A DNA stretch of 63,162 bases, the filler included, from Stramenopiles sp. TOSAG23-6 (Eukaryota), in the NCBI GenBank assembly GCA_900128565.1. It is 40 parts of 40 records of this genome, joined end to end, with 100 filler letters (N's around TTAATTAATTAA, not from the genome) between each part and the next. Parts side by side here need not be neighbours in the genome. Positions count along the whole stretch, not along the records: positions 15,882 to 17,367 come from LT638984.1; 39 more parts are not named here. One strand, written 5' to 3'. Position 1 is the first letter of the stretch. Each line of letters begins with the position of its first letter. Of the stretch, positions 15,023 to 61,480 are shown piece by piece. The position numbers and the translations under genes were made by a program. Below the pieces are notes generated by a model. The model was not told where the DNA came from. It did no database searches and was given only the letters and a program-made list of their open reading frames with translations.

Positions 15023-15781
15023 TTATAAAAAAGCTATTACAGAAATCATTGTGAAAACCTGTAAATTTTCAACAGAACTTTTCCCAGATGAATAGTTTTG
15101 GAGTTCCTTCCAATATGACTTATCATATTCTAGAGCGGTTCTACTTAAATGTCTAATGAAAGCAATTTCTTCAAATAGCCCCTTGATTCTTCCATAATCA
15201 GTCTTATCTTTGTCAAATACCAATGAATAACTACTATGGCAAGAAGTTGTCTTGAACCATCGTGGATGTTTCACTAAGAATGGTTTTACTTCACCATAAT
15301 TGTAGTGTGAACCAGTAGCTATAATTTCAGCGTTATTTCGCTTTGCAACTTCAGGTAAATATTCAATAATTGTCTCAATTAAACCTGGACTTTCCCTCTG
15401 ATCATTCAGCAAATGCTAAACAGGAGAGGGGATTAATCNNNNNNNNNNNNNNNNNNNNNNNNNNNNNNNNNNNNNNNNNNNNNNNNNNNNNNNNNNNNNN
15501 NNNNNNNNNNNNNNNNNNNNNNNNNNNNNNNNNNNNNNNNCGCCACCAATAATAACATCATTGATTTTCGCAAGATAAACACCAAACCCCAAATCCTTAC
15601 TTTTTATGTCATCTTGGATTACCTTAATTTTCGTTTTATACACATCGCAGATTGTACGGATATTTGCTTCCGCAAACTTACCCTGAGCTTGAGGCTTACC
15701 GAAGCCTTCTATTTCTTGTTTCTCAAAAGCCACAAATATTTCGTCACACTCTTCATATGTTGCAGCAAGATGGATAGTAAT
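15023..15781 (-). CDS. Hypothetical protein C-terminus, gapped
   Basis: Open frames 15541-15781 and 15023-15438. Confidence 0.45.
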
Positions 15782-15888
15782 NNNNNNNNNNNNNNNNNNN
15801 NNNNNNNNNNNNNNNNNNNNNNNNNTTAATTAATTAANNNNNNNNNNNNNNNNNNNNNNNNNNNNNNNNNNNNNNNNNNNNTGTTCTG

Positions 15889-16006
15889 AACTGGGAGATT
15901 CGCAATCATTCGAACAATTCTTTCGCCTTTTACTAAAGAATTCCGTGGTTACGAATTGCTAATCCCACTGATCCCAATGTTTGGATATACAAACTCTCAC
16001 GAGTTA
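15889..16006 (+). ncRNA. U5: U5 snRNA
   Basis: TTCTTT-CGCCTTTTACT-AAAGAA invariant loop 1, CCG internal loop, TGGGA/TCCCA basal stem, Sm-like AATGTTTGG, 3' hairpin. Confidence 0.95.
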
Positions 16007-16009
16007 CTG

Positions 16010-16213
16010 ATACCTTCTCGGCCTTTTGGCTAAGATCAAGTGTAGTATCTGTTCTTATTAGAGTGAAATCTAATATTCAGGTCATAGACCTGTAATTTTT
16101 CACACTAATTTTTCTAGGATCGATATGGGCGAGCAGTCGTTTACGATAGCCCCCTAATCAAGCTTGTCTTTTGCATTGCACTATCGCTCTGTGACGAGCG
16201 CCCGAAAGGGCAT
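16010..16213 (+). ncRNA. U2: U2 snRNA
   Basis: ATACCTTCTCGGCCTTTTGGCTAAGATCAAGTGTAGTATCTGTTCTT canonical 5' domain, AATTTTT Sm-like sites, ATTGCAC loop IV. Confidence 0.98.
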
Positions 16214-16229
16214 CTGTTTTTCCTTCTCA

Positions 16230-16388
16230 AAACGTACATGGAGTGATTTGGAGGTGGTCAATATGGCCTCTAAATCCGAGTGAAGCAAGACCTGATCACT
16301 TTGGTTGTTTGTAAAGCTCGGTGCTGCTCTTCGGAGTATGCGGATTCTCAATTTTTTGTAGGGCTCTGCAGCGCGTGCGCTCTTAGCC
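16230..16388 (+). ncRNA. U1: Variant U1 snRNA with altered 5'-splice-site recognition arm (AAACGUACAUGG)
   Basis: Helix H GGAGT/ATTCT; SL1 GATTTGGAGG/CCTCTAAATC with loop GGTCAATATG; SL2 loop TGATCACTT; SL3 with TTCG loop; Sm site AATTTTTTG (16350-16358); GC-rich SL4; located between U2 and U4. Confidence 0.85.
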
Positions 16389-16394
16389 ATCTGT

Positions 16395-16529
16395 ATCTTT
16401 GCGCTTGGGGCATTACCTTTACCATTGACGTTCGCTGAGGTTGGGTTATTGCTAGTTGAAAACTACATTCCAAGTTCATGGTTCTTCCTAGTGTTGAACC
16501 TAATTTCTCAAACGTCTCTCACGAGATAC
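16395..16529 (+). ncRNA. U4: U4 snRNA
   Basis: ATCTTTGCGCTTGGGGCA (U6 stem II arm), TTGCTAGTTGAAAAC (stem I arm), AATTTCT Sm-like site, 3' hairpin. Confidence 0.92.
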
Positions 16530-16531
16530 TG

Positions 16532-16660
16532 ATGCCAATTACCTTCGGGTATTGTGCTAAGATTGTTTTTCTTAATTTCTAAGGAAAATGCAAGATGCTA
16601 CTGGAGTAGTTTTTAATGCAGTTCGATTCTGCGTCGTCTTTTGAAGTTATTTTTTACATT
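16532..16660 (+). ncRNA. Unidentified structured RNA, fifth unit of the snRNA cluster
   Basis: Follows the same TCTCACGAG.TACTG|A junction as U5-to-U2; CTTCGG hairpin, U2-like GCTAAGAT, U12-like CTTAA...TAAGGAAAAT, two further hairpins, U tract. Confidence 0.5.
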
Positions 16661-16865
16661 TATTTGTTGTTTTATTAAATTTTTTTAATGTTTGAATCAA
16701 TGCATTCGCTTGAGATGCGAATTCATAATTTACTATTGTAACAATTCCTCGTGAAATTGCATGATTTTTTGCACTTCTCTGTAGAAAAAAAAGTGAGACT
16801 GGTAATATTACAAACATTTTTATTATATTTTATAAAGTCTCATTTTTGTTTCTTTCTCAACAGAC

Positions 16866-17367
16866 TTATTCCATAAATCCATAATCGAGTTCAACTGTTT
16901 TGCTGCGACCGGTTGAGTCATTCTTTGCGCGAAATTTCAGTTCAGTTGCACCAAAGATTGCATCAACAGAAAAATTCTCAATGCCATTACAGGAAATCTT
17001 CATCGTGCCAATTTTGCGGCAACAAGGAGATGTCACCCAAAATGGCGGCCTACCTATTTGCGACGTTGATACGTAGAGGTCAAAGTGAACTGAACGTTGA
17101 GAAAAAGTCGTAGAATAACCACCTTTCGTAATTGCTTCATTGACTTTCACCTCCTGGCCCCGCTTAACCAACACGGAAAAATAATTCCTTATTCTCCGGA
17201 TTCCTTGTTCGTCGAGATAAGACTTACCAAGTGCATCTTGGCGTTGATGCTCAGGGTTAGATGAATTAAATACTGTTGCTATAGATACGCCATAGTGAAA
17301 TCGTGCCTTGCGTGAGACAAACATTGCTTTTGAATCTGCAAACATGCATGCCCCTGTGACTACTGCA
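16866..17367 (-). CDS. HSPA12-like atypical Hsp70, C-terminus
   Basis: AVVTGACMF...VSRKARFHYG...FSVLVKRGQEV...FGATELKFRA. Confidence 0.85.
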
Positions 17368-17468
17368 NNNNNNNNNNNNNNNNNNNNNNNNNNNNNNNNN
17401 NNNNNNNNNNNTTAATTAATTAANNNNNNNNNNNNNNNNNNNNNNNNNNNNNNNNNNNNNNNNNNNNA

Positions 17469-45944: not shown

Positions 45945-47422
45945 CGTGAGGAAAATCTTGCATGGTGTCTCTCGACAGAATTTCCTGCTGCTCGAGCTAA
46001 GTTTGTCGCTTCATTGCGTGAAATCATGCCAGGTTTATTGCATAATATTGCTGATCTTGTACGTTGTCTCATTTAATTTCAATTTTTTTTTGGTTTCATA
46101 CGAAATTTTGTACCTAACATGTTTACTTTTTTGAAATATTTGTTCACAATACTTCGATCTCAAATTGTGAAAGAAGTAACGTCTTCTTTATCAGCTTTTT
46201 CTCTTGTATTAGGGAAAGATTTGGATCCTCTTGCAAGCAAACTAATTGAAAGTTTATTGAAATTAACGTATATTACAATTCAATGTATTCGAGATTCGGG
46301 GTCAGATTGTCTGCGTAACATTATTCTATGTACGTCGACTGGCTTTCCTCGCGCAGTGATTAAAATTTTAGACGGCGCCAATTCAAAAAATGAAAAGTTG
46401 AGATGTCATGCAATGGCATGCCTTGCATTGGCTCTACGTCAATGGAATCCTTCCAGCTTTTCCAAAACAATTACTGAAGTGACTGCATCTATTAAAGCTG
46501 GCATAAGTGGATCTAGTCCTGATGTCAGGAGTACTGCAAGACAAGCACTTTTATGTCTAGAAATATCTTTCCCTGAAGAAGCACACCGTGTTGAAGCAGG
46601 TTTAAATCAAAGAAATATTCGTCAAATGCAACGTGATCGTTCAGAATTTTCTCCATCTCGTTTTGATACACTAGGACCAACACTTGGATCTACAGTAACA
46701 GATTCATCTTGTGCGGTTCAAAAATCATCTAAATATGGAAATTCTAAGCATCGGAGTAATGATAAAGCAACGACTACTATTCCCACAAGGAATCATCCTA
46801 AAACGAAATCAGTTTTTTCTCATAGTTACAGTGAATCTACTGGCACCAGCAATACTAGTGGTCCAGTAAGAGTTCACCAGCGTGATGAAAGAAGAGCTCC
46901 TTTTCACAATGCATCTGATTCTCATAGAGGAGGAAATTTATCTAAAGCTAAATGTCATTCTAATGAACATATGTCTACACAAGCATTACGGGTTGTAGCT
47001 CCAGCCCAACGTCATAGTGGACATCCATATCAAGGCGNNNNNNNNNNNNNNNNNNNNNNNNNNNCATCGTACACAACATTCAAGGATACATAGCCATACG
47101 AAACACAACCAAGATGAAAGTAGTACAAGTCTTGGCGGTGCTCGGAGAGTTACAACGAATACGTCTTCTATATCTCAATCATCACACGGTGCAAACATTT
47201 CTACGGATGTTCAACGTGATGAACAAGGAGCTCGTAGAATAGCTTCGACGACTTCAGAATCACATGTCACATCTGGTGTGCGCAAGCAAACAGTTAATAC
47301 AATGTCTGACATGGAACTCACAGATTCAGAAACTGCAAAACAACTTACATTGTCACAACTACTTCGTTTATCAGCTGATGATCAATGGCATAGCCGAGCT
47401 GCTATATGCACTGGATTTTCAA
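45945..47422 (+). CDS. CLASP N-terminal TOG-domain protein (intron 46059-46154)
   Basis: IADL|RSQIVKE conserved DLRS motif; PDVRSTAR. Confidence 0.85.
46059..46154 (+). other. Introner-family intron, GT...TT, TT duplicated
   Basis: GAT CTT|GTACGT...CACAATAC-TT|CGA TCT restores DLRS. Confidence 0.88.
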
Positions 47423-47522: not shown

Positions 47523-48365
47523 GAGGCAGAAGGTTGTATAAGATATCGGCGAGTGTTTAATGCAATTCAACGTCAGGTGGAAGAAGAAGTCAAAACAAAT
47601 TCAGGTTTAGATAGCGTTCCTCTCTCTGAAGCGATAGCATCATCAGCAGTAAAAACAGCAATGTATGTTTTTCATCATAAAAAAAGTTTCAATTTTTTTT
47701 CATACGAAATTTCGTACCTAAACAAAAAAAATATTTTTTTTTTTTTCACAATACATGGACATTGGCGCTAAAGCTATCGTAGTGCTTACACAAAGTGGAG
47801 CCACTGCCCGTTTAGTTGCTAAATATCGTCCAAGTCAACCAATATTATGTCTAACACCATCCACAGACACTGCACGAAATACAAATGGATTACTCCGGGG
47901 TGTGACATCGCGTGTTATGTACGTTTTTTTTGTACCAAATTTTGTACCTAACGAATTTTTTTTTTTTTTTTTTTTCATTCATTTCAAATTTTTTTTTCAT
48001 TGAAAATTTTGTACCTCATAATTTTTTTTTCTAAAAAAAAAATATGTTTTCACAATACATGAAATCAATGGAAGGTTCAGATGGCATTCTTAGACAAGCA
48101 GGTCTGTTAGCCAAAGAATTAGGGTGGGTGAATTCAGGGGATCTTTACGTAGCTATTCACGTATGTTTTTTTTTTGGTACGAAATTGTATACCTAACAAT
48201 TTCTTTTAAATCATTTGTTTCATCATTTATGTCCTTTTTTTTTTTTTTTAAATTTTTGTTACTTAACAAAACATTGAATGTCTGAAATATTTTTTCATAG
48301 TACATGGACAAATTGAAGGTCTTAGTGGTGAAACTAATTTGATGAAAGTACTAACAGTGTCTTAG
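47523..48365 (+). CDS. PK: Second pyruvate kinase, C-terminal exons (introns 47663-47756, 47919-48060, 48161-48305)
   Basis: EAIASSAVKTAM|DIGAKAIVVLTQSGATARLVAKYRP...SRVM|KSMEG...VAIH|GQIEGLSGETNLMKV. Confidence 0.93.
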
Positions 48366-60214: not shown

Positions 60215-61480
60215 AAGGCTATAGCGGCGACTTTAAAACGTCTCAAAGACATAGAAGAGAAAATTGCTGATGTTCCATTTATGCAGATCAAGAATGTAAA
60301 GAGTGAGGCTGAAAAAAAAATGGAACGTTCGGCAATGGCAGATTTTTTTACAGGGGAAAAAATTCGAATACAGAGGCAAATGAAAGAGGAAAAATTACAC
60401 CGTACAAAACTGAAACACGAAAAGGACCGTCTGAAAATTGTTTTAAAATTAGCAAATACTGATGAAGAAACAAAATTGAGTAGTTGGCACCTTATACCTC
60501 CAGACTTAAAAACTGCAAATGTTGTATTGAACAAGGATGATTGGCAAGACTTCAGGGTGTATATAGATTTAGATAAAAAGTTGCCGGGGGTCCGCCCAAA
60601 AGGCAATGTAACTGTACGTTTTCATTTCAATTTTCGAATTTATTATTTTTGTTTCATACGAAATGTTGTACCTAACGATTTTTTTTTAGAAATATTTTTT
60701 CACAATACATGTCATCAAAGGTTTACCACCAAAGGAGTATCCAACAGAAGCAGAAATGAATATGCGCGGAGTGTTAATCGTTCGACGAAAAACTGGTGAT
60801 GATGGTTGGTTTCAATTCAATGATAAGATGGATACATTATTTCATGGTTCTTGGATGGATGTATGTTTTATTTTTTTTTTACTATGAATTTTTTTTTTCG
60901 TACTAAATTTTGTACCTAACAATTTTTTTTTGAAATATTTTTCCAAAATACATGGTATTCGACAAGGGAATGGAACAGAAGTTACGAAATATTCACATTT
61001 CGTCGGACCATTTTCAAGAGGTATTTCGAGTGGCCGTGGTGTTTTAGCTTGTAAAGATGGTGTTAAATTTGAAGGTAAATTAGGTATAAAAGTAAAACAT
61101 ATTGACAGTGAAGGGGGATTATTAGTACCAATTTTATATGAAAATGAATACCATAATGGAGTTTTTCAAAGTAAAGGAAAAATTACATTTGCCGATGGAG
61201 CAATCTATGAAGGCCAATTTCTAGATGGCAGGATAACAGGAGAAGGTAAATATACATTACCTAATGATGAAGGTTATTATGAAGGACAATTTGAGAATGG
61301 TCTTCTTCAAGGAGAAGGTGTAAAAGTAGATAAAACAGGTATGATGTGGGAAGGTACATGGAATAAAGGCTTGTTAGATGGTTATGGAACTCAGACTTCT
61401 CTTGATGGACACTGCTTATATACAGGTACTTGGTCTAATGGCTTATGGCATGGAAAAGGGAAATTACACACACGTAGTAT
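60215..61480 (+). CDS. MORN-repeat protein (introns 60614-60710, 60861-60953)
   Basis: FHGSWMD|GIRQGNGTE; YEGQFLDGRITGEGKY repeats. Confidence 0.9.

Follow-up and report, generated by a model that had tools for sequence, protein, structure and literature searches.

Spliceosomal snRNAs are normally capped from their own transcription start, and their export and re-import depend on this cap. In conventional snRNA genes, an upstream element is located 40-60 nt before the start (PMC3464664, in part), and fish U2-U5 clusters have a spacing of 168-570 bp with a PSE and a 3' box (same source). Different snRNA genes are linked in several lineages, as in the U2-U5 clusters of fish, U1-U2-U5 of Soleidae, and U3-U5 of Euglena (excerpts of PMC3464664 and PMC2784804). 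In Giardia lamblia, the available part of PMC3510501 describes ncRNA precursors that are mono- or dicistronic and carry a 12-nt 3' processing motif. The locus studied here also links different snRNA genes; whereas the fish and Euglena genes are separated by 160-570 bp spacers and either have their own PSE and 3' box or are convergent, the genes of this locus are 2-23 nt apart on one strand. It may resemble Giardia, where snRNAs and snoRNAs lie in longer precursors that are cut near a common 3' motif, but the Giardia precursors are at most dicistronic in the part of PMC3510501 used here, whereas this locus contains four different spliceosomal snRNAs in a row, has an end motif of only 3 nt, and closes with a tRNA-like element.

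A search of the open-licence literature in PubMed Central and bioRxiv (subscription papers being outside its scope) found no four-snRNA polycistron, and nothing on snRNA polycistrons was present in the available parts of PMC6461891, PMC2377427, and PMC12614181. Scans for relatives carrying the cluster, which demand exact matches and one fixed order and therefore do not imply absence, gave one match for the U5-to-U2 pattern in metagenomes (a lone plant-type U2), two matches for the U4 pattern in prokaryote genomes (a lone U4 and a weak partial match), and 1, 5, and 0 matches in viral sequences, none with an Rfam snRNA match. A full eukaryotic U4 snRNA (108.8 bits) was observed in a bacterial genome record (L037 808-940), where it is probably contamination.

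The window, that is, the whole stretch of 63,162 nucleotides analysed here, is composed of 40 short contigs and 39 artificial linkers, has approximately 30% G+C, and contains eukaryotic genes that include an AMP-binding enzyme and pyruvate kinase. Near-identical contigs follow one another in pairs (22180-23751/23764-25335 and 52207-53725/53782-55300), probably reflecting redundant assembly. The initial annotation had placed four snRNAs on one strand within ~640 bp, and the Rfam search of the window confirmed this arrangement, with U5, U2, U1, and U4 in this order on the plus strand over 637 bp in total (Table 1). The spacers, originally given as ~3-16 nt, were roughly right: between the Rfam ends, U5 and U2 are separated by 2 nt and U2 and U1 by 23 nt, and U4 begins 5 nt past U1; the U2-U1 gap becomes 13 nt if U2 is taken to extend to 16216, over an additional GAAA hairpin and CTG. 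With gaps of 2, 23, and 5 nt, the individual genes have no space for an upstream element of their own at 40-60 nt from the start or for a 3' box behind the end, as had been argued initially for upstream promoters. We are nearly certain that the four snRNAs really form a cluster.

Table 1. Features of the snRNA cluster, in window coordinates.
Feature	Position	Strand	Remarks
Leader 3' end, CTG-terminated	15882..15888	+	Remainder on contigs C245 and C103 (L003/L004 1440-1508)
U5 snRNA, canonical loop I, terminal hairpin, CTG end	15889..16009	+	Rfam 15890-16007, 76.8 bits
U2 snRNA, extra GAAA hairpin, CTG end	16010..16216	+	Rfam 16010-16206, 138.8 bits
Pyrimidine-rich spacer, 13 nt, longest gap	16217..16229	+	
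U1 snRNA, altered 5' end (16230-16240), Sm site 16350-16361, CTG end	16230..16393	+	
U4 snRNA, CTG end	16395..16531	+	Rfam 16395-16526, 76.0 bits
Structured trailer ("fifth unit"), 60 nt, two hairpins, Sm-like U-tract	16532..16591	+	
tRNA-like element, 49 nt	16592..16640	+	Also 48 nt past the 28S rRNA end

U2, U4, and U5 exceeded their Rfam gathering scores. U1 matched over the full model length (16230-16389, 54.1 bits, E 2.9e-12), which is under the gathering score of 69.5; its four stems and Sm site are present, and its 5' arm and loops I and II deviate from the Rfam consensus. The branch-point recognition sequence of U2 and loop I of U5 agree with the Rfam consensus. The canonical Sm site has the consensus A-U4-6-G, which the U1 site fits; the U-tracts of U5 (15976-15984, by a G), U2 (16107-16117), and U4 (16502-16510) are interrupted. 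No match to U11, U12, U4atac, or U6atac was obtained by Rfam at E<=10 in 15600-17400, and ARAGORN found 0 tRNA genes in the window.

The CTG-type motif that the initial annotation had noted at unit boundaries was recovered at each of the five unit ends. The leader and all four RNAs terminate in CTG (starting at 15886, 16007, 16214, 16391, and 16529, one per unit end), and in the RNAs this triplet is located 1-2 nt past the terminal hairpin. CTG occurs 16 times in 779 nt, and the chance of finding it within a 5-position window at the three Rfam-defined ends (U5, U1, and U4) is approximately 1e-3, a rough, after-the-fact estimate. The terminal hairpins of U5 and U4, described earlier as near-identical, indeed have the 10-mer CTCTCACGAG as a common core (15994-16003 and 16516-16525).

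The cluster occupies the first 780 nt of contig G000:C6122, so the window DNA to the left of 15882 is not its genomic neighbour. A second copy opens contig C1146, is identical over its first 664 nt (to window 16545), and diverges beyond, and contigs C245 and C103, whose flanks are unrelated, run 55 nt into the cluster and then stop. The assembler seems to have collapsed a repeat that exists in two copies; therefore, the identity of the copies carries no evidential weight, and an upstream flank cannot be assigned to its downstream counterpart. Family searches of the assembly with U1 and U2 returned two matches each, namely the two cluster copies (41 and 47 candidates scored), and a DNA search of the assembly revealed no further close copies. 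U6, which is single in the genome, is located on another contig, keeps ACAGAGA, and pairs with U4 via stems I and II (dimer, -38.3 kcal/mol). The search for U6 and other clusters that had been proposed at the outset thus placed U6 apart from the cluster and found the cluster in two copies. Because the assembly has no U1 or U2 match outside these two copies, the cluster is the ordinary major-spliceosome snRNA set of the organism, not a second spliceosome. The earlier idea of a dedicated spliceosome accordingly finds no support as far as a second machine is meant, and holds in the sense that U1 is tuned to the organism's own non-canonical introns. U3 and SNAPC3 were not found in the assembly, which is incomplete, so that neither absence counts as evidence.

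Words of the cluster were also present in public sequencing runs, which are marine or seawater samples with the exception of two. Three seawater DNA runs, all from one study distinct from that of the top holders, contained 0.92, 0.90, and 0.79 of 77 sampled 31-mers. By arithmetic, approximately 16% of 31-mer positions cross one of the four junctions, so a share of 0.92 would be hard to reach unless junction words were present. Seven runs recorded as RNA contained 0.16-0.36 of the sampled words, which may derive from conserved snRNA parts of other eukaryotes and were left out of the evidence.

Both copies are preceded by a 69-nt leader that aligns without gaps (45 of 69 positions identical) and ends at the first CTG, and a genome-wide search found the leader start pattern only at the two cluster copies. 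A CACGTG palindrome stands 64 and 62 nt ahead of the leader in the two upstream flanks, and CACGTG does not occur within the cluster. The 12-mer of the C245 copy recurs upstream of U6, at a distance of 68 nt from the Rfam start of this gene, which also has an upstream TATA box and a B-box-like sequence ~170 nt downstream (L012 760-790); yeast SNR6 likewise has a downstream B-box. The palindrome 12-mer TGACACGTGTCA has 57 genomic sites versus 0 for a control pattern, and all five of the other sites inspected resemble coding DNA. With 57 sites genome-wide, often in coding-looking DNA, the palindrome was rejected as an snRNA-specific element. Two roles considered for the leader were also dismissed: as a conserved hairpin, the two copies have no common fold and a joint fold of only -1.65 kcal/mol, and as a C/D guide, the leader has no antisense match of at least 10 nt to the partial rRNA or the snRNAs. 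A bacterial promoter scan gave chance-level results only.

The initial annotation had counted a fifth unit after U4 (16532-16591), and this claim was not upheld, the region giving no Rfam match at E<=10. Its fold has a z-score of -2.24 (6 of 200 shuffles equally good), and its sequence differs between the copies. U12, U7, and spliced-leader RNA were discarded as identities on the same Rfam threshold. A role in guiding recognition of AT-ending 3' splice sites was likewise rejected: the trailer contains an 8-mer complementary to one intron-end variant, and its pairing did not go beyond shuffles (7/60 and 6/60) in a test that covered 32 intron ends from 60 branch motifs, 28 motifs having no usable end.

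The element that follows the trailer can fold into a 6-bp acceptor-like stem with one unpaired base, a 4-bp hairpin with a UGG loop, and a 5-bp T-arm with a 7-nt T-loop, and it has no anticodon arm. In this fold it shows what is expected of t-elements and mascRNA, namely an acceptor stem, a D-like loop containing GG, and a T-arm whose loop has 7 nt. This 49-nt element terminates both cluster copies and recurs 48 nt behind the Rfam end of 28S rRNA. Ten exact sites of the T-arm 14-mer were found: six of rDNA-spacer type (of which two lie on contigs that include a 28S end), one in each of the two clusters, and one each on contigs C1110 and C128. With up to one mismatch there were 14 sites versus 3 for a control, and among the four one-mismatch sites only that on C155 scored with the element model R1 (22.5 bits, E 7e-4). 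In six aligned copies, 94% of cells pair in the three helices versus 27-58% when the alignment is slid, a count made with a structure drawn from these same sequences. Covariation amounted to one two-sided change in six close sequences (reached by 157 of 500 shuffles), and fold z-scores were approximately -1; the minimum free energy fold of the rDNA copy equals the proposed one, and that of the window copy has no acceptor stem.

Several loci carrying parts of this element were observed. C155 (L024 ~1100-1520) is probably an intergenic row of box C/D snoRNAs that ends in the T-arm-like hairpin; one unit carries, immediately ahead of its D box, a 13-nt antisense match to the 5' region of U2 and is likely a U2 methylation guide. 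On C1110 (L011/L045 903-1045), 94 bp that are 77% like the gene start upstream of the C103 cluster copy are directly followed by the tRNA-like element, with snRNAs absent; the cluster may have been lost from what was once a third locus. On C128 (L018 1488-1546, minus strand), the 3' half of the element and rDNA-spacer-like DNA lie right behind a long ORF, perhaps the trace of an insertion into the tRNA mimic. The rDNA spacer also contains a 5S rRNA (L009 695-813, L008), encoded on the same strand as the tRNA-like element, some hundreds of bases past it and after a CATTA/CATTT-rich repeat, and C3431 carries the tRNA-like element in tandem. The 18S 5' end and the rDNA promoter were not recovered from the assembly.

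Among candidate processing proteins, the genome encodes a PRORP-like protein with PPR and NYN parts whose PRORP score of 38.7 falls just short of the cut-off of 39.1. A basic stretch after its first Met resembles a nuclear signal, as far as the amino acid sequence suggests, and a homolog search with this PRORP-like region gave no match. In the excerpted literature, PRORP cuts t-elements and depends on the D and T loops of its substrates, whereas the anticodon arm can be missing (PMC3858429); the 3' end of MALAT1 is made by RNase P at a tRNA-like structure (PMC12095793); and Rnt1 recognises hairpins with NGNN tetraloops (PMC5027489). No junction endonuclease was identified, and the NGNN rule of Rnt1 is fitted by the U1 terminal loop only. 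A TGS1-like cap methylase ORF is present; this gene is not decisive on caps, because the snRNAs of Trichomonas are uncapped despite a Tgs enzyme.

These features suggest that the cluster is probably encoded as an operon-like unit yielding a single precursor, and one promoter, one precursor, CUG cuts, and an RNase P end would be the most economical reading of them. The promoter, marked by CACGTG 62-64 nt ahead of the leader, would drive transcription, most likely by Pol II, of a precursor in the order leader-U5-U2-U1-U4-trailer-tRNA-like element. The choice of Pol II reflects the nine T4-T6 runs within the cluster, whereas U6 meets a T4 7 nt past its end. An endonuclease would cut after CUG at every unit end, and the short spacers would be trimmed. 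RNase P, probably the PRORP-like protein, would cut before the tRNA-like element and close the 3' end, and it might also cut behind pre-28S rRNA; that the element is an RNase P cleavage site is a tentative proposal, which we put slightly below an even chance. The freed U5, U2, U1, and U4 would carry 5' monophosphates or be capped by some other route, as the internal snRNAs would have no transcription-made cap. The polycistronic precursor put forward initially thus gains partial support, from the anatomy of the locus (tight gaps, one leader and upstream motif, CTG ends, and a tRNA-like end element).

Other explanations of the locus were weighed against this single-precursor reading. The most probable among them, still an unlikely one, keeps the single precursor, possibly as a Pol III product, but has the end element act at the DNA level, as a TFIIIC B-box, boundary, or terminator, rather than as an RNA cut site. 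The T-loop core is identical to the B-box, U6 combines its downstream B-box-like sequence with the same upstream palindrome, 5S rRNA lies downstream of the rDNA element copies, and covariation in the element is not significant, all of which would suit a DNA signal. An RNA structure is favoured instead by the pairing of 94% of cells in the three helices versus 27-58% when slid (with the structure drawn from these sequences), by the U6 B-box, which by eye has no T-stem, and by the weak C155 copy, which retains the T-stem with a different pair; the T4-T6 runs, set beside the T4 behind U6, argue against a Pol III precursor. Transcription of the whole cluster by Pol I, as a mini rDNA-like unit, would explain uncapped products as well as a 3' element in common with pre-rRNA, and the same element does stand 48 nt behind 28S. 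This reading is very improbable, since the leader pattern is confined to the two clusters and the palindrome is shared with U6.

Separate transcription of each snRNA, from promoters inside the preceding gene or inside the gene itself, would reduce CUG to a homogenised mature 3' end. Human U1 and U4 likewise end in CUG, which fits such a reading, as do the TGS1-like protein, expected where snRNAs are capped, and the U3-U5 and U2-U5 linkages elsewhere that retain their own promoters. We nevertheless regard it as improbable: the upstream elements would overlap four unrelated, structurally constrained RNAs, both copies keep a gapless conserved leader, and the CACGTG common with U6 occurs just once, ahead of the leader and never inside. 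The internal promoters that the initial annotation had offered as an alternative were not borne out for the same absence of CACGTG inside the cluster, and the nine T4-T6 runs speak against Pol III read-through. Least probable of all, and very unlikely, is a chimera in which assembly or amplification joined snRNA genes that are separate in the genome. The 664 nt identical between the copies and the two contigs that stop 55 nt in are the pattern of a collapsed repeat and would be compatible with it; on the other side, four full-length RNAs share one orientation and a common end motif, no stand-alone U1 or U2 exists elsewhere in the assembly, and word shares are high in the runs of another study.

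The altered 5' end of U1 was compared with the introns of the genome. Introns of ~90 nt that start with GT, contain the branch motif GTACCTAAC, and end in AT or other non-AG dinucleotides are repeated in many window contigs (for example, 188-279, 46059-46154, 47663-47756, and 60861-60953), and some carry a 2-nt repeat at both borders. The first bases of U1, AAACGUACAUG (16230-16240), are the exact complement of CAT/GTACGTTT, where the slash marks the donor junction, and the G within AAACGUACAUG can pair with either C or U at donor +4. The host donor type is AT/GTAYGTTT. In the regions upstream of 41 non-redundant branch motifs, GTATGT was found in 17, GTACGT in 11, and GTAAGT in 2, that is, 28 GTAYGT hexamers versus 2 GTAAGT. 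Among 30 donor contexts, chosen by the pattern GYMYGT and probably including some false ones, the unselected positions mostly had A at -2 (22 contexts) and T at -1 (21), +7 (21), and +8 (22). The mean best duplex of host U1 with the 41 regions was -8.5 kcal/mol versus -5.05 +/- 0.26 for shuffled sequences, compared with -4.4 versus -4.8 kcal/mol (shuffled) for canonical U1, and host U1 paired better than canonical U1 in 37 of the 41 regions. We therefore consider it highly probable that U1 is co-adapted to the donor sites of its host.

In all four window introns tested, excision from GT to 2 nt past ATAC preserves the open frame; three end in AT and one in TT, no frame-keeping AG was present within 25 nt, and two of the four have no AT-AC register at all. 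Neighbouring excision registers often yield the identical protein, so the exact intron ends are not fixed by the frame. The 32 usable intron ends comprised 21 AT and 2 AG. Pairing of the first 60 nt of U1 with intron ends was equalled in 1 of 60 shuffles, among 14 regions tested, and was treated as chance. The snRNA sequences thus account for the donor and not for the AG-less acceptor, because the U2 branch-recognition sequence and U5 loop I match the Rfam consensus.

In Entamoeba and Mastigamoeba balamuthi, the U1 5' arm is likewise altered to fit atypical donors, and an ACGUAC core is common to Mastigamoeba U1 and the host U1, whereas lineages preferring GUAUGU retain canonical U1 (10.1101/2022.06.08.495308). 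Unlike in the amoebae, the change in host U1 also covers exon -1 and +7/+8 (an 11-nt match), and the introns mostly end in AT. The major spliceosome of Fritillaria borealis likewise handles introns that escape GT/AG, there with U2AF duplication and changed m6A marks and here with a change in U1 sequence (PMC13326754). A tRNA-like structure also marks an RNA 3' end in MALAT1 mascRNA and in plant mitochondrial t-elements, with the anticodon arm dispensable (PMC12095793, PMC3858429); unlike these, the present element lies behind an snRNA cluster and a nuclear pre-rRNA, its RNase P site is predicted, and its acceptor stem has 6 bp and one unpaired base. Yeast Rnt1 similarly uses one signal type for pre-snRNAs and pre-rRNA, and also for snoRNAs, but that signal is a hairpin with an NGNN tetraloop, whereas the one proposed here is tRNA-like (PMC5027489). 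Trichomonas vaginalis provides a precedent for capless spliceosomal snRNAs alongside a Tgs enzyme; there they are known, and here they are predicted only (PMC2588526).

The cluster would represent polycistronic ncRNA processing applied to the spliceosome. Four abutting snRNAs would require a biogenesis route other than the usual one and would make the dispensability of caps, separate promoters, and 3' boxes testable. More speculatively, and with rather less confidence than we attach to the RNase P site, the locus might be a spliceosome operon in which a CUG-end nuclease releases equal amounts of U5, U2, U1, and U4 from one precursor and the snRNAs function without caps; a tRNA mimic and a protein-only RNase P would replace RNase III in a 3'-end signal that pre-snRNA and pre-rRNA, and perhaps a snoRNA cluster, have in common, and the trailer or leader might be a further snRNA for AT-ending introns. 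The U1 described here is the first trans-acting change that fits the GT-AT introns of this genome, and its 11-nt match to the donor establishes GT as the register and implicates the major spliceosome. If RNase P does cut at the tRNA mimic common to the cluster and the rDNA 3' spacer, the enzyme would have a new task in the maturation of nuclear rRNA and snRNA.
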